Shown: in pieces, positions 3,791-58,975 of the stretch | Numbering within the stretch: the stretch's first letter is position 1 | Layout of the letters: each line of letters opens with the position of its first letter | Source: Thermoplasmata archaeon | GTDB lineage: Archaea; Thermoplasmatota; SW-10-69-26; JACQPN01; JAJPHT01 | Assembly (NCBI GenBank): GCA_034667685.1 | Contig: JAXDQU010000106.1 | Span: 11,610 to 75,609 of the forward strand | Length of the DNA stretch: 64,000 bases | Reading direction: 5' to 3' | Position numbers and translations under genes: made by a program | Notes under the pieces: generated by a model | What the model was told of the DNA's origin: nothing | What the model saw: only the letters and a program-made list of their open reading frames with translations | Databases searched by the model: none

Positions 3791-4720
3791 TCAAGAACGT
3801 TTCCGGAGGATCGCGAGGGCCACGACGCCCGCGAGGAGCAGCGCGAGGGGCGCGGCCGGCGACCTGGGCGAGACGGGCGGCGGGCTCGTGGTGACGCCTG
3901 GCGTCGTGCTCGGGCTCGTCGTCGTGGTCGGGGCCGGCGCCGTGCTCGTGCCGGGCGTCGTGCTGGGGATGACCGGCGTGGGCACGTTGGGCGCCTGCGC
4001 GCAGCGGAACGCGACGAGGTCCGAGCGCGCCACGAGCTGGTCGGGCGCGGCGTACGTCTCGCTGCGGACGATCTGGCACGCGGCCGGCGCCCACCAGTCG
4101 CGGCGCAGCGCGCCCCCGGGGAAGCGCCCTTCGAGGACGAAGGCGTGGAAGGCGCCGGCGGGCACGGCGAGGTCCTCCTCGCGCAGCACGGTCCAGTTGG
4201 CCGCGATCGTCGGCGTGGAGCCGTCGCTGCCGCGCAGCGCGCACGAGACGTTCCACGCGTCGCCCACGTGGAGCGGGAAGCGCGTCTCGCGGCAGGGGGC
4301 GTCGAGCGAGTACGTGACCGGGCCCGACGACTCGCGCATGAGGGCGAGGTCCTCGTCGCGGTACCAGGCGCTCTGCGACGCGGTGCCGTTGCGCGCCGTC
4401 GAGACGTTCCAGGCGTTGGCGAGCGTCCCGGCCGCCACGCGCTCCAGCCCGCCCACGGTGAGCGTGGCGTTCCCGCCCCCTTCGACGGCGTAGGACCACG
4501 CGTCTCCCTCGCTCCACGCGGGCTGCGTCATGGAGGCGGCGGCGGTGGGCACGAGCAGCACGAGGGCCAGGAGCAGGGCGCGCACGCGGGTGGGCACGTC
4601 GCGCCCGTGCTTGGCGCTTGCGCGCGGCGGCGGAGCAACGCGAGCAGCGCCACGCCCAGCACGAAGGCCGCGAGCGGCGCGGCGGGGGCGTCCTTCGTCG
4701 TCGACGACCTCGTTGCGCAC
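3791..4720 (-). CDS. secreted surface protein, paralog of 1922..2809
   Basis: Shares blocks with the neighbouring PGF-CTERM protein (PAGAFHAFVLEG vs AAGTFDALVIEA; WWAPAACQIVR vs WYAPDACGFVK). Many N-x-S/T sequons, Thr/Pro-rich linker, C-terminal TM plus RKRS. Start uncertain: signal peptide VRALLLALVLLVP suggests a GTG near 4585. Confidence 0.5.
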   Translation of the reverse strand: MRNEVVDDEGRPRRAARGLRAGRGAARVAPPPRASAKHGRDVPTRVRALLLALVLLVPTAAASMTQPAWSEGDAWSYAVEGGGNATLTVGGLERVAAGTLANAWNVSTARNGTASQSAWYRDEDLALMRESSGPVTYSLDAPCRETRFPLHVGDAWNVSCALRGSDGSTPTIAANWTVLREEDLAVPAGAFHAFVLEGRFPGGALRRDWWAPAACQIVRSETYAAPDQLVARSDLVAFRCAQAPNVPTPVIPSTTPGTSTAPAPTTTTSPSTTPGVTTSPPPVSPRSPAAPLALLLAGVVALAILRKRS

Positions 4721-7504: not shown

Positions 7505-7828
7505 ATGCGCTTCTCCACCCTCTTCCTCGCCCTCGCCCTCCTCCCCGCCCTCGCGTTCCCCGTCGCCAGCGCGAACCTCACGCAGGTCTGCACCGGCGGC
7601 CTGATCGAGTCGGTCCAGGCGTGCGCCTCGACGAACGGCTGCGCGACCGTCTGGCTCGGACCCGCCGGGCACACCGTCTGCGCGGGCTCGCTCGTGGGCG
7701 CGGTCCACGTCTGCACGACGAACCTCGTCGAGTCGGTGGGCGTGTGCGTGGACACGGCGCCCGTCTGCGTCACGCTCTACGCGGGCCCCGCCGCGACGCC
7801 CGTGTGCCTGGGCAAGCTCCTCGCCTGA
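7505..7828 (+). CDS. small secreted Cys-rich protein with internal duplication
   Basis: Signal peptide MRFSTLFLALALLPALAFPVASA, then two ~35-aa repeats (VCTGGLIESVQACAS...TVCAGS / VCTTNLVESVGVCVD...PVCLGK). Confidence 0.5.
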   Translation: MRFSTLFLALALLPALAFPVASANLTQVCTGGLIESVQACASTNGCATVWLGPAGHTVCAGSLVGAVHVCTTNLVESVGVCVDTAPVCVTLYAGPAATPVCLGKLLA

Positions 7829-7851
7829 GGGCGCCGCCCGACTTCTGGGCC

Positions 7852-8053
7852 GCATGCGACGCGGCGACGACGCGACGCGCGCGAAGGCGAAAAACTTCGA
7901 TTCGCTTGAGGAGTGACCCCGGCGAATACCCGAGAACCCGGGCACCCGCCGACCCGACCGTAGATGTCCCGCTCGGGTTTTCGGGTCGTCGGGTTCTCGG
8001 GTCTTCGCTGGGGTCACAAGCCAACATCGCGCGCCTCGCGCTCGCCGCACGCG
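7852..8053. mobile_element. MITE-like element, copy 1 (degenerate right end)
   Basis: Left terminus GCATGCGACGCGGCGACGACGCGACGCGCGCGA is near-identical to copy 2 at 23699. Internal long palindrome (GTGACCCC...CCCGAGAACCCGG // CGGGTTCTCGGG...GGGGTCAC). Confidence 0.4.
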
Positions 8054-8123
8054 CCGCATGCGGAGCCGCGCAGCGCCCGCGCGGCAGCGAACCTTTATCG
8101 GCGGCACGCCTGTCCCCGCCTTC

Positions 8124-8846
8124 ATGCCTGAGGACTATGCAGCCTTCCTGAAGCGCGCACGCAGCAAGGTGCCCGAGAAGGTGGGCACGGGCGAGCGCTT
8201 CGTGATGCCGCAGATGGACGTCCTCCAGGAGGGCAAGCTCACCATCGTGCGCAACATGGCCGAGGTGCTCGACCGGCTCAACCGTCCCAGCGACCACCTC
8301 GTCCCGATCCTCCTGCGCGAGGTCGGCACGGCGGGCAGCTACGAGGACGGCCGCCTCACGCTCCAGGCCAAGGTCAGCCCGGACAGCCTCCAGACGCGCC
8401 TCGAGAAGTACGTCGAGACGTACGTCATCTGCGGCGAGTGCGGCCGCCCCGACACGCACCTCATGAAGGAGGAGCGCACGACCATCCTGAAGTGCGACGC
8501 GTGCGGCGCGCACCGGCCGATCAAGGGCGCGGCCAAGAAGGCCGCCGTCAAGCCCGAGGAGGCCGTCGTCGAGGGCAAGACCTACGAGGTCATGATCGAG
8601 GACAACGGCAAGCGCGGCGACGGCATCGCGCGGCGCGACCGCTACACCATCTTCGTGAAGGGCGCGCAGAAGGGCAACGTCTACCACGTCAAGATCGAGA
8701 AGGTCACGGGCACGCTCGCGTTCGGCGAGATCGTCAGCGCCGCGGCCGCGACGCCCAACACGGCCGGCCCCAAGACCGCCGCGCAGGCCGCCGCGGGCAA
8801 CAAGCCTGCTTCGGGCGCGAAGCCCGGCGGCCCCGCCAAGAAGTGA
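8124..8846 (+). CDS. translation initiation factor aIF2 beta subunit with C-terminal TRAM domain
   Basis: eIF2-beta/eIF5 core with the C4 zinc ribbon (CGECGRPDTHL...CDACGA), then TYEVMIEDNGKRGDGIARRDRYTIFVKGAQKGNVYHVKIEKVTGTLAFGEIV (TRAM-like beta-barrel) and an Ala/Lys/Pro-rich tail. Weak TTTATC ~28 nt upstream suggests a leaderless transcript. Confidence 0.8.
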   Translation: MPEDYAAFLKRARSKVPEKVGTGERFVMPQMDVLQEGKLTIVRNMAEVLDRLNRPSDHLVPILLREVGTAGSYEDGRLTLQAKVSPDSLQTRLEKYVETYVICGECGRPDTHLMKEERTTILKCDACGAHRPIKGAAKKAAVKPEEAVVEGKTYEVMIEDNGKRGDGIARRDRYTIFVKGAQKGNVYHVKIEKVTGTLAFGEIVSAAAATPNTAGPKTAAQAAAGNKPASGAKPGGPAKK

Positions 8847-15305: not shown

Positions 15306-15308
15306 AGG

Positions 15309-15351
15309 GACTCGGGGCTCTGGACTCAAGGCTCCGGAGCCCCGAGTCCTG
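15309..15351 (+). repeat. hairpin (GGACTCGGGGCTC ... GAGCCCCGAGTCC) immediately 3' of the aminopeptidase gene
   Basis: 13-bp perfect inverted repeat with a ~17-nt loop, starting 4 nt after the stop codon. Confidence 0.4.
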
Positions 15352-15420
15352 AGCCCAGAGCCCCGAGCCCGCCACGTCTTTGCGATATGGTTTTCCCTCG
15401 CCGCCCCCTAGGCAAGCACG

Positions 15421-18616: not shown

Positions 18617-18638
18617 CGCTCGGCCCGCTCTCTTCCAG

Positions 18639-18706
18639 CCACAGAGGACACGGAGGTCACAGAGGCGACTCTTCTCGTCCCTCTGTGACCTCCGTGTCCT
18701 CTGTGG
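18639..18706 (+). repeat. perfect 27-bp inverted repeat (hairpin) between livG and livF
   Basis: CCACAGAGGACACGGAGGTCACAGAGG, 14-nt loop, CCTCTGTGACCTCCGTGTCCTCTGTGG. No T-tract follows. Confidence 0.9.
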
Positions 18707-18730
18707 ATGGCGTGAAGCAGGGGGCCGCGC

Positions 18731-22129: not shown

Positions 22130-23098
22130 GTGCCGCGCGTCCGCCCGTTGGACCTGCTCAAGCGCGCCCTGAAGGAGTGGGGCGAGGACAAGGCGCCCAA
22201 GCAGGCGGCCGCGCTCGCCTACTACAGCGTGTTCGCCCTGGGGCCCTTGCTGCTCGTGTGCGTGCTCGTCGCCGCGCTGGCGGTGGGCCGGGAGGCCGCG
22301 CAGCAGGCGATCCTCGCGCCCTTCGCCCGCCTCACGGGGGACGCGGGCGCGCAGGCGGCGGGCGACATCCTGCACGGCGCCGGTCCGCGCGGGTCGAGCC
22401 TCGTGGGCATCGCGACGGGGGCGGTCGCGCTCGTGCTGGGCGCGATGGGCGTCTTCACGCAGCTCAAGGAGGCCTTGAACACCGTCTTCGAGGTCGCGCG
22501 CAAGCCGCGACGCGGGCTGCGCGCCAAGATCCGCGGCGCCGTGCGCGACGACGCGCTCTCGTTCGCGGGCGTGATGACGGGCGCCTTCCTGCTCGCGGTG
22601 ACGCTCGTGGTCTCCGCCGGCATCGCGGCCCTCGCCGGGTGGATCGACGCGCTCCTGCCCGGAGGCGCCGCGCTGGGGATCGCGCTGGAGGCCGTGCTCG
22701 CGCTCATCGTGCTCACGCTGCTCTTCGCGGCGCTCTTCAAGCTCGTCCCCGACGTGAGGATCGCCTGGCGCGACTCCTTCGTGGGCGGCGCCGCGACCGC
22801 CATCCTCTTCGTCGCGGGCCAGGCGCTCATCGGCGTCTACCTGGGCCGGAGCGGCTTCGCGGCGCGCTACGGGGGCGCCGGCGCCGCGCTGCTGATCCTG
22901 CTCTGGATCTACTACTCCTCGCTCATCCTCGTCTTCGGCGCGGAGCTCACCCAGGTGTACGCGAACCTCTACGGCCGGCGCGTCAAGCCCGCGCCCAACG
23001 CCCGCTCGCTCCAGGAGCAGGTGCTCGACGAGCACCGCGGGCCGGATCGCGAAGGCACCGAGGGACGGCCGGTGAGCCGCAGGCGCCCCGCTACTTGA
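22130..23098 (+). CDS. YihY/BrkB (RNase BN-like) family membrane protein
   Basis: GTG start. Signature AALAYYSVFALGPLLLV and six TM segments. Confidence 0.7.
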   Translation: MPRVRPLDLLKRALKEWGEDKAPKQAAALAYYSVFALGPLLLVCVLVAALAVGREAAQQAILAPFARLTGDAGAQAAGDILHGAGPRGSSLVGIATGAVALVLGAMGVFTQLKEALNTVFEVARKPRRGLRAKIRGAVRDDALSFAGVMTGAFLLAVTLVVSAGIAALAGWIDALLPGGAALGIALEAVLALIVLTLLFAALFKLVPDVRIAWRDSFVGGAATAILFVAGQALIGVYLGRSGFAARYGGAGAALLILLWIYYSSLILVFGAELTQVYANLYGRRVKPAPNARSLQEQVLDEHRGPDREGTEGRPVSRRRPAT

Positions 23099-23669
23099 TC
23101 AGCGCCTGCACGGCCTTGAACTGCGGATGCTCCTTGCCGCCCATGAGCTCGAAGAGCGCCATCTCGACGTTGCTCGGCTCCGCGCCGTGGCGGCGGGCGC
23201 GCGCGAGGCCGCTCTCGCGGTTGGCCGGGTCGCGCGACCCTACGGCGTCCTCGACCACGTGGACGGCGTAGCCCGCTTCGAGAAGGTCGAGCGTCGTCTG
23301 GAGGACGCAGATGTGCGCCTCGATGCCCGCGACGAGGACGTTGGGCCTCCCCGCGGCGCGGATGCGCGCCGCGATGCTCGGGTCGCCCGCGCACGAGAAG
23401 CTCGTCTTCTCCAGCACGCCGCCGGCCGCGTCCACCGCCGCGCGAAGCTCGGGGATCGTGTGGCCCAACCCCTTCGGGTACTGCTCGGTGACCATGACCG
23501 GCACGCCCAGGAGACGCGCCCCCTCCGCGAGCGCGGCCGCCTTCTGACGCAGCGCCGCGTCGCCGTGGATCAGCGGCTGAAGGCGCTCCTGCATGTCGAC
23601 GAGAAGCAGCAGCGTGTCGTCCGGATGGAGGCGGGACATGGGTGCGGCAGGTCGTCCGCGCGGCATCAT
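23091..23669 (-). CDS. isochorismatase-family cysteine hydrolase
   Basis: LLLVDMQ, HICVLQT (Cys nucleophile), VVEDAVGSRD. Start at MM (23669) or MSRLH (23639). Confidence 0.7.
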   Translation of the reverse strand: MMPRGRPAAPMSRLHPDDTLLLLVDMQERLQPLIHGDAALRQKAAALAEGARLLGVPVMVTEQYPKGLGHTIPELRAAVDAAGGVLEKTSFSCAGDPSIAARIRAAGRPNVLVAGIEAHICVLQTTLDLLEAGYAVHVVEDAVGSRDPANRESGLARARRHGAEPSNVEMALFELMGGKEHPQFKAVQALIK

Positions 23670-23698
23670 GGTTTGTCCTCGCGGCTCGGCCGGCTCCG

Positions 23699-23892
23699 CA
23701 TGCGACGCGGCGACGGACGCGACGCGCGCGACGGCGGGCTTCGGTCGTCCATGCTGACCTCGGTGTGAACCCGACGGCCCGATGACCAGACTTTCACCCC
23801 GGGTTCTCGGGTTCGCGGGTCCTCGGGTTCCGCCAAGGTCACCAGCCCCGCGTCGCGCGCGTCGCGCCCGTCGCCGCGTCGCATGCGCAGCT
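23699..23892. mobile_element. MITE-like element, copy 2 (intact ~33-bp terminal inverted repeats)
   Basis: Left end GCATGCGACGCGGCGACGGACGCGACGCGCGCGA. Right end is its near-perfect reverse complement (...CGCGCGCGTCGCGCCCGTCGCCGCGTCGCATGC). Internal CGGGTTCTCGGGT motifs are shared with copy 1. Lies in the divergent intergenic region between the isochorismatase gene and speA. Confidence 0.45.
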
Positions 23893-23937
23893 GCGAAGCG
23901 TCGGCGCGGACCCGCCCCGACGAACAGCTTAAGGGAC

Positions 23938-25971
23938 ATGCGCATCGTGCCCGCTCTCGTGAAGGCAGGCGCCCAGCACGAGGAGCCCTGGACGGTCGAG
24001 CGCGCGTTGCAGTTCTACAACGTCGAGGGGTGGGGCGCGTCGTTCTTCACCATCAACCCCAACGGGAACCTCTGCGTGACGCCCTACGGCCAGCCGGGGC
24101 CCGTCATCGAGATCATGGACGTGATCGAGGACGCGCAGGAGAAGGGGCTCGGCTTCCCGCTGGTCATCCGCTTCAACGACATCCTGCGCACGCGCGTCGT
24201 GAAGCTCAACGACAAGTTCCGCGACGCCATCGCGTCGAACGGCTACAAGGGCGGCTACTTCGGCGTCTATCCCGTGAAGGTCAACCAGCTCCGCGAGGTC
24301 GTCGAGGAGATCCTGGACGCGGGCGCGCCCTACCACCACGGGCTGGAGGCGGGCAGCAAGCCCGAGCTCTTCGTCGCGCTCGCGCTGAACACCGATCCCG
24401 ACGCGCTCACCATCTGCAACGGCTACAAGGACGAGGACTACATGCGCCTCGCGCTCTCGGGCCGCAAGCTGGGCCGCAAGGTCATCGTCGTCATCGAGAA
24501 GCTCAGCGAGCTTCCGCTCCTGCTGCGCGTGGCGGCCGAGATGGGCGTCGAGCCGCTCATCGGCCTGCGCGCGAAGCTCACCACGAAGGGCGTGGGCAAG
24601 TGGGAGAAGAGCAGCGGCGACTTCGCCAAGTTCGGCCTCACCATCCCCGAGCTGATCGAGGCCGTCCGTCTCCTGAAGGAGGCGAACAAGCAGGACGCGT
24701 TGAAGCTGTTCCACTTCCACGTGGGCTCCCAGCTCACCGACATCCGCACCATCAAGGACGCCGTGAAGGAAGGCGCGCGCATCTACGCCAAGCTGCGCAA
24801 GATGGGGATGCCCGTCGAGTTCTTCGACATCGGCGGCGGCCTCGCCGTGGACTACATGGGGAGCCGCAACACCGACAACAGCAGCACCAACTACACGCTC
24901 GACGAGTACTGCGGCGACGTCGTGTACAACGTGCAGCAGATCTGCGAGAGCGAGGAGGTCCCCGTCCCCAACCTCGTCTCGGAGAGCGGCCGCGCGCTCA
25001 CGGCCTACCACTCCTGCATCATCATGAACGTCTTCGGCAACATCGAGATCGGCTCGCCCAAGGTGGCCATCCCGACCAACGCCGAGGAGTTCGGCGTCGA
25101 GATCGTCAAGCAGATGCGCGAGATCGTCGATGGCGTCACGCCCAAGAGCGCGCTGGAAAGCTATCACGACGCCACCGCCAAGAAGGACGAGGCGCTCGAC
25201 GCCTTCCGCCTGGGCCTCATCGGGCTGGAGGAGCGCGCCGCCGTCGAGGCGATGTTCTGGGAATTGATGAAGAAGCTCGTCCCGCTCACCAAGAAGATGC
25301 GCCGCGTCCCCGAGGACCTCCAGGACATCGAGACGAAGCTCGCCGACCAGTATCTCGCGAACTTCTCGCTCTTCCAGAGCGCCCTCGACCACTGGGCCTT
25401 CGACCAGCTCTTCCCCGTCATGCCCGTGCACCGCCTCGACGAGGCGCCCACGCACGAAGCCACGCTCGTGGACATCACGTGCGACTCCGACGGCAAGATC
25501 GACGAGTTCGTCGGCCCCGAATCCAGCGCGCCCACCGTGAAGCTCCATGATATCAGAGGCAACGAGCCCTACTTCATCGGCATGTTCCTCACCGGCGCCT
25601 ACCAGGACATCATGGGCGACATGCACAACCTCTTCGGACGCACCAACGAAGTCCACGTCTTCGTCGACGACGAGGACCCCGAGGACTTCTACCTCGAGAC
25701 CGTCATCCCCGGCGACATCATCAGCGACGTCCTCGCCCGCGTCCAGTACGAGCCGCGCGAGATGCTCCGTCGGGTCAAGACCGCGATCGACGCGCGCGTC
25801 AAGGACCCGCAGTTCCCGCTGAAGCCCAAGGACGGCGTCGCCATCATGGACTTCCTGGAGCAGACGCTGCGCAGCTACACGTACCTCCTGCCCATGAGCG
25901 CGGACGGCAGCGAGCGCATCACGCCCGCCGCGGTCAAGGCGCTCGAGGCGCCCAAGACCGAGCGCGCATGA
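23938..25971 (+). CDS. speA: biosynthetic arginine decarboxylase (PLP, fold type III)
   Basis: 677 aa. Strong SpeA blocks (FYNVEGWGASFFTINPNGNL, GFPLVIRFNDILRTRV, GGYFGVYPVKVNQ, HFHVGSQ). Confidence 0.8.
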   Translation: MRIVPALVKAGAQHEEPWTVERALQFYNVEGWGASFFTINPNGNLCVTPYGQPGPVIEIMDVIEDAQEKGLGFPLVIRFNDILRTRVVKLNDKFRDAIASNGYKGGYFGVYPVKVNQLREVVEEILDAGAPYHHGLEAGSKPELFVALALNTDPDALTICNGYKDEDYMRLALSGRKLGRKVIVVIEKLSELPLLLRVAAEMGVEPLIGLRAKLTTKGVGKWEKSSGDFAKFGLTIPELIEAVRLLKEANKQDALKLFHFHVGSQLTDIRTIKDAVKEGARIYAKLRKMGMPVEFFDIGGGLAVDYMGSRNTDNSSTNYTLDEYCGDVVYNVQQICESEEVPVPNLVSESGRALTAYHSCIIMNVFGNIEIGSPKVAIPTNAEEFGVEIVKQMREIVDGVTPKSALESYHDATAKKDEALDAFRLGLIGLEERAAVEAMFWELMKKLVPLTKKMRRVPEDLQDIETKLADQYLANFSLFQSALDHWAFDQLFPVMPVHRLDEAPTHEATLVDITCDSDGKIDEFVGPESSAPTVKLHDIRGNEPYFIGMFLTGAYQDIMGDMHNLFGRTNEVHVFVDDEDPEDFYLETVIPGDIISDVLARVQYEPREMLRRVKTAIDARVKDPQFPLKPKDGVAIMDFLEQTLRSYTYLLPMSADGSERITPAAVKALEAPKTERA

Positions 25972-37397: not shown

Positions 37398-39173
37398 ATG
37401 CAATCTCCGATCCGAACGCGGCTTCGCGGCAACGGCGTCCGGACGCTGCTGCTCGCGCTCGTCCTCATCGCGCCGCTCTCTCTCGCGGTCGCCGCGACGC
37501 AGCCGCAGGACGTCACCGTGCCCGCTGGGACGACCCTCACCGTGGCGGCGCCCCTCTCCGTGGGCACGCTCACCGTGCTGGGCACGTTGAAGATGGACGC
37601 GCCCGGCGACTTGCGCATCGTCGCGCAGAGCATCCACGTCGGGCCCCACGGCGTAATCGCTGGCTTCGCCGGCGCGCCCGGGCGAGACGCGCACGGCCTG
37701 GGCGCGACGGGAGCGCCAGGCCTCGACGGCGGCTCCGTGTACCTGACCGCACAGTCGGTCGAGGTGGACGAGGGCGGCTTCATCCTGGCGGGCGCGGGCG
37801 GCCACGGCGGCAACGCCGAAGGGCTCGGCCTCGTGACCGCAGGCCCGGGCGGCCAGGGCGGCTCCGTCGTCGTCCAGGCCGTCACGAGCCGGCTCGACGG
37901 CGCGCTCGTGCCCGGGGACGGCGGCGACGGCGGCAACGCGGCCGAGGTCGTCCATGACCTCGTGCTCCAGGGCGCGACGGTGGCAGGTAACGGTGGCGAC
38001 GCGGGCTGGGCTCTCCTCAATGGGCGCCCGGTCGCGCCGAGCGCCGCGCCGCCCCCGATCGTCGCGGAAGTCATCGACCTCGTCTTCTACTGCGGAGTGC
38101 CGCTCCCCCTGACTCCCGTAGGGGCTCCCGGGGCGCCGGGCGTCGTTACGCGCGGCGGGCGTGGCGGCGACGCGTGCATGAGATCCTTCAGCGCCGATGG
38201 CCTGCCGTGCGTCGGTGATGCGGGCGATGGCGAAACCCCCCACCCCACCCACGCGTCGGCCACGGCGGGCAACGGCGGCGCCGGCGGCCCGACCCAGCCC
38301 GGCGGCGCGGGCGGCACGGCCGTCGCTTGGGCCCGCTCGGGCAACGGGTCCGACGGATGCCCGGGCGCGACGACGGGCGGCGCGGCCGGCAATGGCGCGG
38401 GCGCCACGGCCGACGCGCAAGGCGGCCGGGGCGGCCAGGGCGGCCACTCCGTCGGCCTCACCGCCGGCGGCAGCGGCGGTGGCGGCGGCAGCGCGTTCTC
38501 GGAAGCATACGGCGGCATCGCCGGCAACGGCGGCAGCATCACGACGGCGATCGGCACCGGCGGCGCCGCCGGCATCGGCGGGGGCGCCTCGGCCACCGCG
38601 GTGGCCGGCGATGGCGGCAGCGGCGGCGACAACAACTCGGGCATCGGCGGTGGCGGCGGTTCGGCGAACGCGACGGCGATCGCGGGTCACGGCGGCAACG
38701 GCGGCAACGCCGGGCCCGGCCTGACTGGCGGCACCGCGGGCCTCGGCGGCTCCGGCGGCAATCCCTCGTCCTCGGCCCGTGCGGGCAGCGGCGGTGCAGG
38801 CTCGATCGGCGGTGGCGGCGGCGACGCGAAGGCGACCACCGGCGGCCCGGGTCAGAGCCCGTACGGCGGCGACGCGGGCAACATCGGCACGGCTCAGCCC
38901 GGCGGCAGTGGCGGGAGTTGGAGCGCGGTCGCCATCGCAGGCGATGGTGGCGACGGCTGCTCGAGCCCGACCCACACGCCCGTCCCGGGCAACGGCGGCC
39001 AGGGCGTGGCGTCCGGCCCCACGGGCGGTGCGCCCGGAGGCAACGGCACGCCCCACGGCCAGGCCGGCTCGAGCCTCCAGACATCCTCCGCCAACGGGAG
39101 CTCCGGCGGCATCGACGGACCCACGTGCGCGACGGGCATGCACGCCCCGCCGCCTTTCCAGGACGTCTTCTAG
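37398..39173 (+). CDS. secreted Gly-rich GGxGG-repeat protein 1
   Basis: ATG 14 nt after GGAGG. Signal peptide MQSPIRTRLRGNGVRTLLLALVLIAPLSLAVAA. ~100-aa N-terminal domain, a Cys-containing block, then ~350 aa of GGxGG-type repeats (GGNGGAGG, GGRGGQGG, GGDGGSGG). The antisense frame encodes only Pro/Arg-rich junk. Confidence 0.55.
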   Translation: MQSPIRTRLRGNGVRTLLLALVLIAPLSLAVAATQPQDVTVPAGTTLTVAAPLSVGTLTVLGTLKMDAPGDLRIVAQSIHVGPHGVIAGFAGAPGRDAHGLGATGAPGLDGGSVYLTAQSVEVDEGGFILAGAGGHGGNAEGLGLVTAGPGGQGGSVVVQAVTSRLDGALVPGDGGDGGNAAEVVHDLVLQGATVAGNGGDAGWALLNGRPVAPSAAPPPIVAEVIDLVFYCGVPLPLTPVGAPGAPGVVTRGGRGGDACMRSFSADGLPCVGDAGDGETPHPTHASATAGNGGAGGPTQPGGAGGTAVAWARSGNGSDGCPGATTGGAAGNGAGATADAQGGRGGQGGHSVGLTAGGSGGGGGSAFSEAYGGIAGNGGSITTAIGTGGAAGIGGGASATAVAGDGGSGGDNNSGIGGGGGSANATAIAGHGGNGGNAGPGLTGGTAGLGGSGGNPSSSARAGSGGAGSIGGGGGDAKATTGGPGQSPYGGDAGNIGTAQPGGSGGSWSAVAIAGDGGDGCSSPTHTPVPGNGGQGVASGPTGGAPGGNGTPHGQAGSSLQTSSANGSSGGIDGPTCATGMHAPPPFQDVF

Positions 39174-39259
39174 GAGGAGACGGCAAGAGCGTGACATCCG
39201 GAGCCGTGCGTTCCGCGCCGCACGGCTCCTCTTTTCCCTTTTCCCCAGGAGAACGACGC

Positions 39260-40909
39260 ATGGACCCCGGACGCAAGCCCCGTATCCCGCGTGCATTTGC
39301 CATCGCGTGCGCCGCGCTCGTCGCCCTGACGAGCCTCGGCGCCGCCTCGCTCGCGCAATCCGCGGGGCCCGACATTGTCGTCGCGCGGGGCGTGACGCTC
39401 ACGCTCGATGCGCCCGCGCACCTGCGCCATCTCCTCGTCCAGGGCGAGCTGGTCCTCGACCTGCCGCCCCATGCGGTCCTCGCTGCCGATGACGTCCGCG
39501 TCGCCTCGTCCGGCGCGATCCGCGGCGCCAACGGCGCGGACGCGCCCGCCGCGCGCGGCCTCGACGCGTCTGGCCTGCCAGGCGCGCCCGGCGCGAGCGT
39601 CGCGCTGCGCGTCGGCTCGCTGGTGGTCGAGCGCGGCGGCGCGATCGTTGCCGGCTCGGGCGGGCGCGGCGGCGACGCCCTCGGATCCGGCCTCCTCCGC
39701 GGCGGCCCCGGAGGCGCCGGCGGCTCGCTCCTCCTCGACGCGGCGCAGAGCAGTGTCGAGGGGCGCCTCGCGGCGGGCTCGGGTGGCGAAGGCGGCGACG
39801 CGATCGCGCTGCGCGCGCCGGCGACCGCGCAGGGCGGACGCGGCGGCGACACGGGCGTCGCGCTGCTCGACGGCGCGCCGATCCCCATGACGAATGATAT
39901 CATGCCGTCCCCGCGCTTCGCGGCCGGGTGCAGCTCGCCGCCTCTCGGCGCGCCCGGCGCGGCCGTCGTCGGCGGCGCGGGCGGATACGCCTGCATGCGC
40001 GTCGAGAGCGAGGCCGGCGCGCCCGGCCCCGCGTGCGGCCCCGGCACGGAAGGCGGGCCGGCCCTCGCCCTCGCCATCGGCGGCGACGGCGGCGACGGCC
40101 TCGCGCCTGGCGCCCCCGGAGGCGCCGGCGGCAGCGCGTTCGCGCAGGCCGACGCCGGGCAAGGCGGCGCGGGCGCGGACTGCATCACGGGCAGCGGCGG
40201 CGCCGGAGGCGTTGGCGGCCGGGCCCTCGCCCAGGCGCGCGCGGGCCAGGGCGGCCAGGGAGGCGTGGGCGCGGCGGGCGGCGCCGGCGGACTCGCCTTC
40301 GCGCAGGCGCGCGGCGGACCCGGTGGCGCAGGCGGGTCGGGCGCGCTCGCGGGAGGCGCTGGCGGCGTCGGCGGCGCGGCGGACGCCTCGGCGCTTGGCG
40401 GCGCGGGCGGCGCGGGCGGAGCGCTCGGCGCGCCCGCAGGCGGAGGCGGCCCCGGCCGCGCGGACGCTTCGGGCGGCCACGGCGGCGCGGGAGGCCGCGG
40501 CCAGACGGCGGGCGGGAATGGCGGCGAAGGAGGCGCAACCTCCGCCAACGCCACCGGAGGCGGCGGCGGGGCCGGGGATTCCGGCGGAGGCGGCGGACCG
40601 GGAATCACCAGCATCGACGCGCGCGGCGGCGACGGCGGCGCGCCCGATGGCCTGGGCGGAGCGGGAGGCGCGTGGCGCTCCATCGCCACCGGAGGCGCGG
40701 GCGGCGACGGGTGCGACGGCGGCCAGGGCGCGAACGGCGGCTTCGCGGTGGCCGGCACGCCGGGCCCAGGCGTCTCGGGCGGATCGAACACGGAAGGTGG
40801 CACGGCTCCCCCGGGCGCCGGCAGCGCCACCGCGACGCAAGGCCGGGCCGGAGCCGCGGGCGGGCCGGGCTGCATGTTGTTAGCGATCGACTGGAGGACA
40901 CCAAGATGA
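39260..40909 (+). CDS. secreted Gly-rich GGxGG-repeat protein 2
   Basis: Signal peptide MDPGRKPRIPRAFAIACAALVALTSLGAASLA. Paralogous N-terminal domain and Cys block. Long GGAGG/GGQGG repeat region. Confidence 0.55.
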   Translation: MDPGRKPRIPRAFAIACAALVALTSLGAASLAQSAGPDIVVARGVTLTLDAPAHLRHLLVQGELVLDLPPHAVLAADDVRVASSGAIRGANGADAPAARGLDASGLPGAPGASVALRVGSLVVERGGAIVAGSGGRGGDALGSGLLRGGPGGAGGSLLLDAAQSSVEGRLAAGSGGEGGDAIALRAPATAQGGRGGDTGVALLDGAPIPMTNDIMPSPRFAAGCSSPPLGAPGAAVVGGAGGYACMRVESEAGAPGPACGPGTEGGPALALAIGGDGGDGLAPGAPGGAGGSAFAQADAGQGGAGADCITGSGGAGGVGGRALAQARAGQGGQGGVGAAGGAGGLAFAQARGGPGGAGGSGALAGGAGGVGGAADASALGGAGGAGGALGAPAGGGGPGRADASGGHGGAGGRGQTAGGNGGEGGATSANATGGGGGAGDSGGGGGPGITSIDARGGDGGAPDGLGGAGGAWRSIATGGAGGDGCDGGQGANGGFAVAGTPGPGVSGGSNTEGGTAPPGAGSATATQGRAGAAGGPGCMLLAIDWRTPR

Positions 40910-42723
40910 TATCAGGACACGGAGCCCGAAGGACAAACCGATCGACCCGGCTCGCTGCGACCTGCGCGGTCGCGTTGGGCCTCGTTCTCCTGACGCCGAT
41001 CGTGGGCAGCTTCGGGACCAATGCGCCCGGGATGGACGCGAGCGTCCCTGAGGGCGCGGTGACGACGCTGCAAGGCGCGCGCTCGTTGCACGACATCGAC
41101 GTGCTGGGCACGCTCGTGCTCGACCTCGCCCCCGGCCAGACCCTCGACGCGGTCCATGTGCACGTGGGCGGCCACGGCGCGATCGTGGGTGCCGCAGGCG
41201 CGGCGGGCGCAGACGCGCAGGGACGCGACGCGCAGGGCGCCGCAGGCGCGGAGGGCGGCCGCGTGGTGATCCAGGCGGACTCCATCACGCTCGACGAAGG
41301 AAGCCTCGTGCAGGGCGGCCGTGGCGGTGAGGGCGGCGCGGCGACTGGCTACGGCGTCGTGGTCGGCGGCAACGGAGGCACGGGCGGCTTCGTGCGCGTG
41401 ACCGCGCGGGAGCGCAGCGTGCACGGCCTCATCCTGCCCGGCTCGGGCGGCGACGGCGGCGCGGCCGTCGAGATCGTCAACGCGTCGCAGGTCGTCGGCA
41501 TGAGCGTCAAGGCCGTCGGCGGGCGCGGGGGCGACACGGGCCGCGCGTGGCTCAATGGCGTCCTGGTCCCGGCCAAGCTGCCCGACCTGCCGAAGCCGCC
41601 GCTTGTCTCGATCAATCCGCCGCTCCAGTGCCCCGGCGGCGCGGCGCTCATCATCGGCTCGCCCGGGTTGCCCGAGGGCGGCCACGGCGGGACCGCGTGC
41701 ATGCTCAGCATCGGCGCCCCGGGCGCCAACGGGTCGGGCTGCGCTGGCTCGACGGGCGACGCGGGCTCGACGGGAGACGCGGCAGCGGCTGCGGCGGTCG
41801 GCGGACGCGGCGGCGACGCCGCGCTTCCGGGCGTGCCCGGCGGCGGGGGCGGCGACGCGTGGGCGATCGCGCGCGGCGGCAACGGCGGCGACGGAAACAG
41901 CTGCCTGACCGGCGGCGCGGGTGGCAACGGTGGCGGCGCACAAGCGGAGGCCGTCGGAGGCGAGGGCGGCATGGGCGGGACGCTCGGCGCCCTGGGCGGC
42001 TTGGGCGGCTGCGGCTACGCAGAGGCCAAGGGAGGGCTCGGCGGCACGGGAGGCTCGGGCTCGACCACCGGAGGCGCTGGCGGCTCGGGCGGCAGCGCGT
42101 CCGCCACGACGGACGGCGGCGACGGCGGGCCCGGCGGCCTGCCCAACGGCCTGGCCGGCGACGGCGGCTGCACGTTCACCTTCGGGGCGGGCGGCAACGG
42201 AGGCCGCGGTGGGGCCTGCACCAGCATGTCCCTCTGCACGGCCGGCACGGGCGGCAGCGCGGGCCAGCCCACCGACGCCAAGTCGCGCGGCGGACGCGGT
42301 GGCGACGGCGGGCGCGGAGGGAATGGCGGCGCGGCGCACAGCGAGGTTGACCCGCGCGGCGGGGACGGCGGCGTGCCCAATGGCCTGGGCGGGCTGGGCG
42401 GCAGCGTGAGCGTCCTGGCGGCGGGCGGCGACGGCGGGAACAGCCTCACCTGGCCCGAAGGGGGACTGGGCGGCGAGGCGAGCACGCTGATCCCCCAGGG
42501 GAGCCTCGATGGCGGCCTGGGCGGCGACGGCACCCCCGCGCTGGGCGGGGTGGTTCTCGCCGACCAATCCAAGCGGGGCGAGGATGGGGTCGGGACCGGT
42601 GGGCCTGGGCCCTCCGTTGGCGGCGCACCCACGCTCTCATCCTGGGGCGCGGCGCTCATGGCCGCCGCGCTGCTTGGCGTGGGCGTCGCCTTCACGCGGC
42701 CCCGAAGGCCCGATCAGCCCTGA
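40906..42723 (+). CDS. secreted Gly-rich GGxGG-repeat protein 3 with C-terminal TM anchor
   Basis: ATG overlaps the stop of protein 2 (ATGA). Signal peptide, paralogous N-domain, GGxGG repeats, then C-terminal WGAALMAAALLGVGVAFTRPRRP (hydrophobic helix plus basic cluster, sorting-signal-like). Confidence 0.55.
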   Translation: MISGHGARRTNRSTRLAATCAVALGLVLLTPIVGSFGTNAPGMDASVPEGAVTTLQGARSLHDIDVLGTLVLDLAPGQTLDAVHVHVGGHGAIVGAAGAAGADAQGRDAQGAAGAEGGRVVIQADSITLDEGSLVQGGRGGEGGAATGYGVVVGGNGGTGGFVRVTARERSVHGLILPGSGGDGGAAVEIVNASQVVGMSVKAVGGRGGDTGRAWLNGVLVPAKLPDLPKPPLVSINPPLQCPGGAALIIGSPGLPEGGHGGTACMLSIGAPGANGSGCAGSTGDAGSTGDAAAAAAVGGRGGDAALPGVPGGGGGDAWAIARGGNGGDGNSCLTGGAGGNGGGAQAEAVGGEGGMGGTLGALGGLGGCGYAEAKGGLGGTGGSGSTTGGAGGSGGSASATTDGGDGGPGGLPNGLAGDGGCTFTFGAGGNGGRGGACTSMSLCTAGTGGSAGQPTDAKSRGGRGGDGGRGGNGGAAHSEVDPRGGDGGVPNGLGGLGGSVSVLAAGGDGGNSLTWPEGGLGGEASTLIPQGSLDGGLGGDGTPALGGVVLADQSKRGEDGVGTGGPGPSVGGAPTLSSWGAALMAAALLGVGVAFTRPRRPDQP

Positions 42724-42778
42724 GCACCGCTCGGACGCATGGCCCGCGCCACGGCGGGATGCACCTCGGCTCGGCCGC

Positions 42779-42800
42779 GGGGCTACTTGGGGGTTGCGGG
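42779..42800 (+). repeat. 22-bp direct repeat GGGGCTACTTGGGGGTTGCGGG, copy 2
   Basis: Exact copy of 35971..35992, ~55 nt downstream of the Gly-rich protein 3 stop. Confidence 0.85.
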
Positions 42801-43142
42801 TGCGGGCGTCTCCCGCTCGCGGTTGATGAGCCGCACGGCCGAGGCGCGCGTCTTGGCGCTGGGGGGCCACGCGATGTCGCGGCGCCCCTTCGCGTCGCGC
42901 TTGACGTCGTGGTCGGCGCGGGCGGGCGCGGGCGCGGCGACGGGGGCATCCCCGGCGCGGACCGCGCGCGGCGCGTGCATCGCGCGCATGACGTCCGCGC
43001 TGCGCAGCCACGCCTTGCAGCCCACGCAGGCCATCCCTCCGGCGCGGCTGAGCGTCACGAGGTGGGCCGCGTTGGCCCCCGCGCAGACGGGGCACACGAA
43101 CGGGATCAGGACGGGGGCGCGCGGAGGTGAGACGTTCAACAC
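42783..43142 (-). CDS. possible small zinc-ribbon protein
   Basis: 119-aa ORF with CPVC...CVGC (four Cys in a zinc-ribbon arrangement) near the N-terminus. Compositionally ordinary otherwise. Could be a GC-frame artefact. Confidence 0.25.
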   Translation of the reverse strand: MLNVSPPRAPVLIPFVCPVCAGANAAHLVTLSRAGGMACVGCKAWLRSADVMRAMHAPRAVRAGDAPVAAPAPARADHDVKRDAKGRRDIAWPPSAKTRASAVRLINRERETPAPATPK

Positions 43143-58805: not shown

Positions 58806-58975
58806 TGCAACGTGTTCCGTGCTTCCGTGCAACGTGAACGTGGAACGAACGCCGTGAACGAGAACGTGAACGACCGTCCCGGCTAGATCTGGCCAGATCT
58901 AGCCGAGCCGCGGCGCCGTCCTGCCGTTCACGTTCACGGCCAACGTTCACGTCGCACGTTGCACGGGACGCGCCC
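58806..58975. repeat. complex inverted-repeat region with >=7 GTGAACG/CGTTCAC-type motifs around a perfect 24-bp palindrome GGCTAGATCTGGCCAGATCTAGCC (58881..58904)
   Basis: Left arm TGCAACGTGAACGTGGAACGAACGCCGTGAACGAGAACGTGAACG. Right arm is its imperfect reverse complement (CCGTTCACGTTCACGGCCAACGTTCACGTCGCACGTTGCACG). Confidence 0.8.

Follow-up and report, generated by a model that had tools for sequence, protein, structure and literature searches.

The DNA analyzed here (the window; 64 kb) is part of JGI contig Ga0467038_0000142 (111.8 kb). Two of the encoded proteins, SpeA and aIF2-beta, have 100% identical counterparts in an NCBI MAG labeled "Thermoplasmata archaeon" (SpeA = MEA3201717.1), and the aIF2-beta domain and a DUF7121 in the window already pointed to an archaeal host. 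On sequence evidence, the host is an archaeon (i.e., a Thermoplasmata MAG; 72% GC) and not a bacterium. An isochorismatase-family gene and speA, both confirmed by Pfam, are arranged divergently, and the spacer between them holds a long GC-rich palindrome (copy A). The original prediction placed a miniature inverted-repeat element here, ending 46 bp upstream of the speA ATG; the palindrome ends 46 to 50 nt ahead of that codon. A related palindrome (copy B) begins 23 nt past the stop codon that closes an ORF of 107 aa and ends 61 nt ahead of the ATG of an aIF2-beta-TRAM gene (Table 1).

Table 1. Features of the two palindrome sites (positions refer to the window) and length of the isochorismatase-speA spacer in the window and in relatives
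Feature	Position	Strand	Size, composition, or annotation	Remarks
107-aa ORF	7505..7828	+	gene called in Logan and JGI assemblies	left of B
Copy B	7851..8062		212 bp, 69% GC	same orientation as A, ~16 kb away
Copy B core hairpin	7913..8017		GTGACC-(ACCCGAGA-type)n - loop - (TCTCGGGT-type)n-GGTCAC	
Putative TATA box (TTTAT) of aIF2-beta	8094-8098			26-30 nt before ATG, 31 nt after palindrome B
aIF2-beta-TRAM gene	8124..8846	+	Pfam PF01873 + PF01938	right of B
Isochorismatase-family gene	23091..23639	-	Pfam PF00857, E = 7e-30; JGI gene call	left of A
Copy A left outer arm	23693..23740		GCGACG(G/C)NC-type 8-9-nt units	92% complementary to 23844-23891
Copy A, minimal palindromic element	23697..23887		191 bp, 74% GC	C-GCATGC ... 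GCATGC-G
Copy A inner tandem octamers	23800..23830	+	CGGGTTCT, period 8, x3.9 (TRF)	
Copy A right outer arm	23844..23891		period 9, 3.9 copies at 23849-23882 (TRF)	
Right flank of A	23888..23917	+		matches right flank of B (8063..8092, +) at 20/30
TATA-like CTTAAG of speA (putative)	23926-23931	+		conserved in relatives
speA, biosynthetic arginine decarboxylase	23938..25971	+	Pfam Orn_Arg_deC_N and related	right of A
Isochorismatase-speA spacer, window			298 nt	
Isochorismatase-speA spacer, L126 / L127			103 nt	SpeA in same 90%-identity cluster as window
Isochorismatase-speA spacer, L123 / L124			113 nt	SpeA 77% identical
Isochorismatase-speA spacer, L125			103 nt	SpeA 77% identical

The outer arms of copy A (48 nt each; 92% complementary; spacer, 103 nt) form the longest inverted repeat anywhere in the window. 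They are built from GCGACGCG-type units, with a period of 9 detected by TRF at positions 23710 to 23734 of the left arm, while the inner arms consist of ACCCGAGA/TCTCGGGT units. The internal repeats that had been described from the letters were recovered by TRF as the inner octamers of Table 1, and these have a degenerate inverse partner at 23767 to 23790; the core is flanked by CTGACC (23754 to 23759) and GGTCAC (23837 to 23842). As the interior is self-complementary too, the entire stretch makes up a single long hairpin. Folded as RNA, it reaches a dG of -153.9 kcal/mol (z = -9.6), which none of 200 dinucleotide-preserving shuffles equaled, and folded as DNA it gives a z of -9.5. A generic long-hairpin Rfam model chose the same limits as those of our minimal element.

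This structure changes some details of what had been predicted. Terminal inverted repeats are present, but the inverted-repeat search gives arms of ~44 to 48 nt instead of 33 nt, and the ~195 bp ascribed to the interior correspond to the length of the entire element. The statement that the element has no coding capacity holds in that neither JGI nor Logan called a gene in A or B and that their six-frame translations, joined as one query, found no similar protein among 5.8 billion; open frames nevertheless exist, among them one of 72 codons at A (23666 to 23884, minus strand). In G+C content, the copies lie on either side of the window (A, 74%; B, 69%; window, 72%).

Copy B has the same build. 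Its hairpin is similarly stable (z = -9.3), its ends are GCATGCGACGCGGCGAC..., and its outer arms, again of GCGACGCG units, are 79% complementary. The core arms (7913 to 7960 and 7970 to 8017; 48 nt) are 81% complementary, and an inner arm shows a period of 8 (4.4 copies at 7973 to 8007; TRF). A match of the two-arm pattern also found B. In the same orientation, the two copies align at 72% identity over 215 to 237 nt with many indels, and in the opposite orientation at 66 to 68%. A BLAST comparison within the window gave an E value of 3e-29 for the A-B pair, versus 1e-5 for the best unrelated match, and nhmmer returned E values of 1e-43 to 1e-50 for both copies with no other match. A pattern of 28 to 29 nt taken from the element end matched three arms of the four that the window contains, where none would be expected by chance. 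The non-repetitive core motifs GTGACC ... GGTCAC are common to A and B, and the similarity spans this core; therefore, it amounts to more than shared GC-rich low complexity. Judged by alignment, A and B share ancestry, and the likeness of A to positions 7852 to 8053, which might have proved confined to a short GC-rich stretch, reflects a genuine second copy.

Similarity continues beyond the palindromes on the right side only, for ~25 to 30 nt. The 20 matches in 30 nt between the right flanks (Table 1) have a background frequency of ~1e-4 among all 30-mers of the window, while the left flanks match at 8 of 30, which is the background level. The right-flank stretch of A occurs also in L126, a relative whose site is empty. 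The likeness may reflect either a repeat unit that extends into the flank or a target preference; a target preference, a co-mobilized flank, and a secondary loss in L126 are readings between which two copies do not distinguish.

Copy B is complete and 100% identical in a contig of an independent Logan assembly (L175). Other short-read contigs break in the hairpins: L174 starts at 7971 (i.e., the center of B) and ends at 15353, while L177 ends at 58843 and L002 begins at 23881, both inside palindromes. Such breaks are an effect of palindromes on de Bruijn assemblers and not evidence of high copy number, and their practical consequence is that hairpins fragment the short-read contigs of this organism (L174, L177, and L002). 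At gathering score, Rfam 15 has no match in the whole window; permissive searching retrieved only a generic plant miRNA-precursor hairpin model (MIR918) at 29 to 40 bits, compared with a cutoff of 268. An archaeal replication origin (ORB) was also considered as an identity for the palindromes and set aside: the arms do not enclose an AT-rich unwinding element, the annotated parts hold no orc1/cdc6 gene, and the palindrome occurs twice, at sites separated by 16 kb.

Relatives keep the divergent isochorismatase-speA pair but with a much shorter spacer (Table 1). The flanks of A can be matched by eye to L126, on the left as CATG..CCT.GCG.GCTCG.CCG. and on the right as GAAGCG ... CCGCCCCG.CGAACA.CTTAAGG. 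Base for base, the match between empty and filled sites is not clean: L126 has ~12 nt with no equivalent in the window. A global alignment of filled and empty sites was uninformative, the neutral intergenic DNA being too diverged. For site B, the closest relative found is L176 (aIF2-beta 90% identical; genes 86 to 89% identical at the DNA level), which has the same gene order, namely, AIRC, DUF7121, two small ORFs, and aIF2-beta. One of the small ORFs, upstream of aIF2-beta, has the same length (107 aa) as the ORF next to B, and the spacer between it and aIF2-beta measures 98 nt in L176 versus 295 nt in the window. L125 was rejected as an empty site for B, since its downstream genes are not syntenic. 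The spacer differences are 195 nt at site A and 197 nt at site B, near the element length. Since the spacers of the relatives are shorter by about one element, both copies represent insertion/deletion differences, and an insertion of A in the lineage of the window is parsimonious because A is absent from five relative contigs at two levels of divergence.

In an archaeal host, promoters have to be read in terms of TATA/BRE elements, and a bacterial sigma-70 reading is ruled out. Upstream of speA, CGAACA(G/C)CTTAAGGGACATG is kept in the empty-site relative L126 and lies 38 nt past palindrome A. The TTTAT of aIF2-beta is conserved in L176, whose alignment to the window picks up exactly at position 8093. 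Both putative TATA boxes lie 31 to 38 nt outside the palindromes and are intact; therefore, the element neither supplies nor destroys the putative core promoters, contrary to the suggestion that it might provide or disrupt promoter elements of speA. As to the neighboring genes, the element probably does no more than displace upstream sequence by ~200 bp from the putative TATA/BRE regions of speA and aIF2-beta, which are intact. For speA regulation in particular, the element probably matters little, the putative core promoter being conserved and outside it.

The palindrome does affect gene calling. In the JGI annotation, aIF2-beta has 262 aa (8058 to 8846) and starts at an ATG in the terminal GCATGC of B (8058), while the NCBI and Logan calls begin at 8124 and give 240 aa, and the proteins of relatives have 208 to 216 aa; the terminal GCATGC gave JGI a false in-frame ATG, which extends the protein by 22 codons. 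The protein itself is an aIF2-beta fused to a C-terminal TRAM, and both Pfam domains occur in nearly all of the 120 homologs listed, the named ones among them belonging to Thermoplasmatota and Methanomassiliicoccales. The speA gene of this archaeon belongs to the biosynthetic type of bacteria. It has a small group of Thermoplasmatota relatives at 66 to 79% identity, outside which the best named matches are from Anaeromyxobacter and other Myxococcota (~64 to 67%), and this distribution of protein similarity suggests an old horizontal transfer.

We searched for further copies in 81 kb of the contig, i.e., the window plus 8.7 kb beyond its left end and 8.3 kb beyond its right end (L178, L180, and L177). 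These 81 kb hold only the two copies, with none in the extra 17 kb, and none was found in ~100 kb from five relatives. A scan of GTDB genomes with an 18-nt end pattern returned at least 120 stretches, all of them chance single matches among those listed; two matches from Thermoplasmata/Thermoplasmatota (L022 and L108) were discarded as unrelated sequence sharing only the 18-mer. In the JGI metagenomes, a collection that does not include the source contig itself, a 26-nt end pattern had no match, and the 38 stretches retrieved from metagenomes by the two-arm pattern were all unrelated, sharing only the fixed 12-mers. Scans of viral contigs for the element end and core gave chance matches only, and a blastn search of a plasmid collection in "distant" mode gave none. 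Target-site duplications, which had been proposed as a check, are not visible at any length at either copy, with every plausible boundary and the empty sites of L126 and L176 taken into account. In the Pfam annotation of the 81 kb, there is no transposase or IS with matching ends and no Y1 transposase, RAYT-like, or IS200-like gene; no TnpA or TnpB gene was found nearby. Our search of the literature found no paper naming both MITEs and Thermoplasmata.

Other palindromes occur on the contig. A second, unrelated family is represented at 58825 to 58966 by CGTGAACG-type octamer arms around the center GGCTAGATCTGGCCAGATCTAGCC; this copy follows a stop codon. Its partner (L178:15403-15606) is on the same contig, ~3.5 kb beyond the window start, between convergent genes, with arms of 75 nt (89%). 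The two are ~80% identical, and their central palindrome GGCTAGATCTGGCCAGATCTAGCC is identical. A hairpin at 18635 to 18710 (31-nt arms, 97% complementary; 14-nt loop; CACAGAGGA/CACGGAGGT 9-mers) lies within the 114 nt that separate two genes for ABC-transporter ATPases, and no second copy of it was found in the sequence searched. Another intergenic palindrome (15307 to 15370; GGGACTC/GGGGCTCT-type units) follows a stop codon (15305) at a distance of 2 nt, and it is within this palindrome that Logan contig L174 ends. In a relative whose aIF2-beta is 83% identical (L183), a different GC-rich palindrome (3840 to 3960) with two GGCTAGATGATGCATCATCTAGCC units lies directly upstream of the aIF2-beta TATA box (CCTTTAAAC), and its GGCTAGAT...ATCTAGCC motif resembles the center of the 58825-58966 family. 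From these octamer and 9-mer palindromes on the contig and on L183, it follows that the lineage carries several unrelated palindrome families with tandem-unit arms. Two further repetitive or compositionally unusual regions were seen: window positions 38000 to 43000 (78 to 80% GC) contain long open frames of 897 and 942 codons that overlap and have no Pfam match, and L180:4223-4540, ~4 kb beyond the window end, is an intergenic region of GGTCC/GGGCC-rich 9-nt repeats with inverted repeats of 43 to 52 nt at 73 to 79%.

We interpret copy A as a MITE/foldback-like insertion element of ~190 to 210 bp that is non-coding, palindromic, and lineage specific and that has at least two copies, a reading to which we assign a probability of roughly 60%. 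The second palindromic family, with its like octamer-array architecture, is a precedent for such elements in this genome. Both copies would have arrived by insertion after the lineages split. They may have been mobilized in trans by a transposase or recombinase that is encoded elsewhere and recognizes the repeated end units, and their insertion would duplicate either nothing of the target or a very short stretch of it. A partner element carrying an ORF for this enzyme would be expected to have CGCATGCGACGCGGCGAC at its ends, inverted with respect to each other. In the form of DNA, the element can extrude a cruciform. A transcript of it would fold into a hairpin of ~95 bp, and B could be transcribed within the 3' UTR of the upstream ORF.

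The palindromes might instead be host cis-acting elements, either octamer arrays bound by a lineage-specific DNA-binding protein (i.e., a regulatory or insulator function) or RNA 3'-end stabilizers or terminators like REP/BIME/ERIC. This is unlikely, although several observations agree with it. A and B have the same orientation and lie 31 to 38 nt upstream of a conserved TATA-like box, inverted arrays of tandem 8-nt units resemble repeated protein-binding sites, and L183 has its different palindrome ahead of the TATA box of aIF2-beta. In addition, of six long hairpins on the contig, five start no more than ~40 nt after the upstream stop codon. Intergenic spacers are only ~100 nt here, however, and an insertion into any of them comes to lie close to a promoter. 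Copy A sits in a divergent promoter region, which is not expected to be transcribed. The copies have moreover drifted to 72% identity with many indels, and two sequences give no covariation support. The same promoters of the closest relatives are without the element, which is therefore dispensable there.

It is rather improbable that the palindromes are ancestral and were lost in the relatives, or that B derives from A by local ectopic recombination or gene conversion without a transposase. Long palindromes are deletion-prone, the absence of target duplications and the imperfect empty sites fit such a history, and A and B are only 16 kb apart in the same orientation. Ancestry with loss, however, would require several independent losses, A being absent from five relative contigs that represent three or four distinct genomes. 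The right-flank match of 20 of 30 nt fits a copied segment larger than the palindrome, but the left flanks are at background (8 of 30), and the second palindromic family on the contig has copies ~62 kb apart, so that dispersal extends beyond a single locus.

A broader proposal, which we offer as a speculation with a small chance of being correct, is that the lineage carries an unrecognized class of prokaryotic "foldback" elements. This class would comprise several unrelated families of 70- to 210-bp palindromes with arms of 8- to 9-nt units, which spread without target duplication, perhaps directed by hairpins or flanks, and land just upstream of archaeal core promoters or just downstream of stop codons; A/B (with the right flank of 25 to 30 nt that its copies share), the CGTGAACG family, and the L183 palindrome would be its products.

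It is scarcely credible that the feature is a chimera produced by fold-back during assembly or a chance match of GC-rich, low-complexity sequence. The sequence is CpG rich, the outer arms are simple GCGACG-type repeats, and short-read contigs of other assemblies break inside the hairpins. However, neither the fold nor the end pattern ever arose in dinucleotide-preserving shuffles, the A-B homology takes in the non-simple core, B is identical and complete in the separate assembly L175, and a chimera would be a perfect palindrome, whereas the element is 72% self-complementary with an asymmetric spacer.

Read as an insertion element, the A/B family adds one case from an uncultured, high-GC member of the Thermoplasmata to the sparsely described MITE-like repeats of archaea, and its importance is modest. 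If the genome holds many octamer-array palindromes that were inserted without target duplication, the mechanism of their mobilization would be worth pursuing.

Prokaryotic MITEs are shorter than 500 bp, carry terminal inverted repeats of ~4 to 30 bp, are usually AT rich and multicopy, are flanked by direct repeats in their younger copies, and are mobilized in trans by a related IS (PMC10969869). Both copies are of MITE size (191 and 212 bp) and encode no transposase. They have terminal inverted repeats (A arms, 92% complementary; B outer arms, 79%; B core, 81%) and show insertion polymorphism, site A being empty in L123 to L127 and site B in L176. Like the SM elements of Sulfolobus, the MITEs of Haloquadratum and Halobacterium, Correia/NEMIS, and QMITE, they are intergenic, are predicted to form a stable stem-loop, and differ in presence between related genomes (PMC10969869). 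Unlike MITEs, they have arms of 44 to 48 nt instead of the usual 4 to 30 nt (PMC10969869), and the whole element is palindromic. Direct repeats flank neither A nor B, and the AT richness that is typical, if not obligatory, of MITEs and of the intergenic DNA around them is replaced by 74% and 69% GC (window, 72%). Target duplications can decay with age (PMC10969869), but the arms of A are still 92 to 93% matched. The original reading of a MITE thus stands as far as a small, non-coding, intergenic element with long terminal inverted repeats, a diverged second copy, and empty sites is concerned, and falls short at the target duplication; the MITE label is only partly supported.

Other small repeats share different subsets of these features. 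ERIC/IRU, REP/BIME, and RPE are imperfect palindromes of bacteria, located in intergenic regions or 3' UTRs, with no obligatory target duplication and with possible RNA hairpins. The A/B family resembles ERIC, REP, and RPE in being an imperfect intergenic palindrome that has no target duplication and could form an RNA hairpin, but it has no sequence similarity to the ERIC, REP/BIME, or RPE families. REPs are 20 to 40 nt long, number in the hundreds, and go together with RAYT genes. The A/B unit, by comparison, measures 190 to 210 nt and resides in an archaeal host, with no Y1 family among the annotations of the 81 kb (for REP/RAYT background, see PMC2817692). Nor does it correspond to a curated structured RNA of Rfam 15. 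PATEs derived from IS200/IS605, known from haloarchaea and cyanobacteria, have no target duplication and hairpin-forming ends and are common in archaea; in place of terminal inverted repeats or a palindrome that spans the whole element, they carry a distinct subterminal hairpin at each end. A and B are like PATEs in the absence of target duplications and in a possible reliance on specific flanking target sequence.

Foldback-type transposons (i.e., Drosophila FB, Galileo, and Tetris) have long inverted arms made of short tandem repeats (PMC3573991, PMC4079207). They are eukaryotic, of kilobase scale, and associated with target duplications and, where known, with P- or MULE-type transposases (PMC3573991, PMC4079207). 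Neither the duplication nor such a transposase accompanies A or B. Arms of tandem repeats around a small or absent center, however, are found in both copies (periods of 8 to 9; TRF). This likeness is architectural only, homology being neither shown nor expected. Set against all of these systems, A and B most likely represent a family that is new and restricted to its lineage, while the kind of element, namely, the small palindromic insertion, is a known one.
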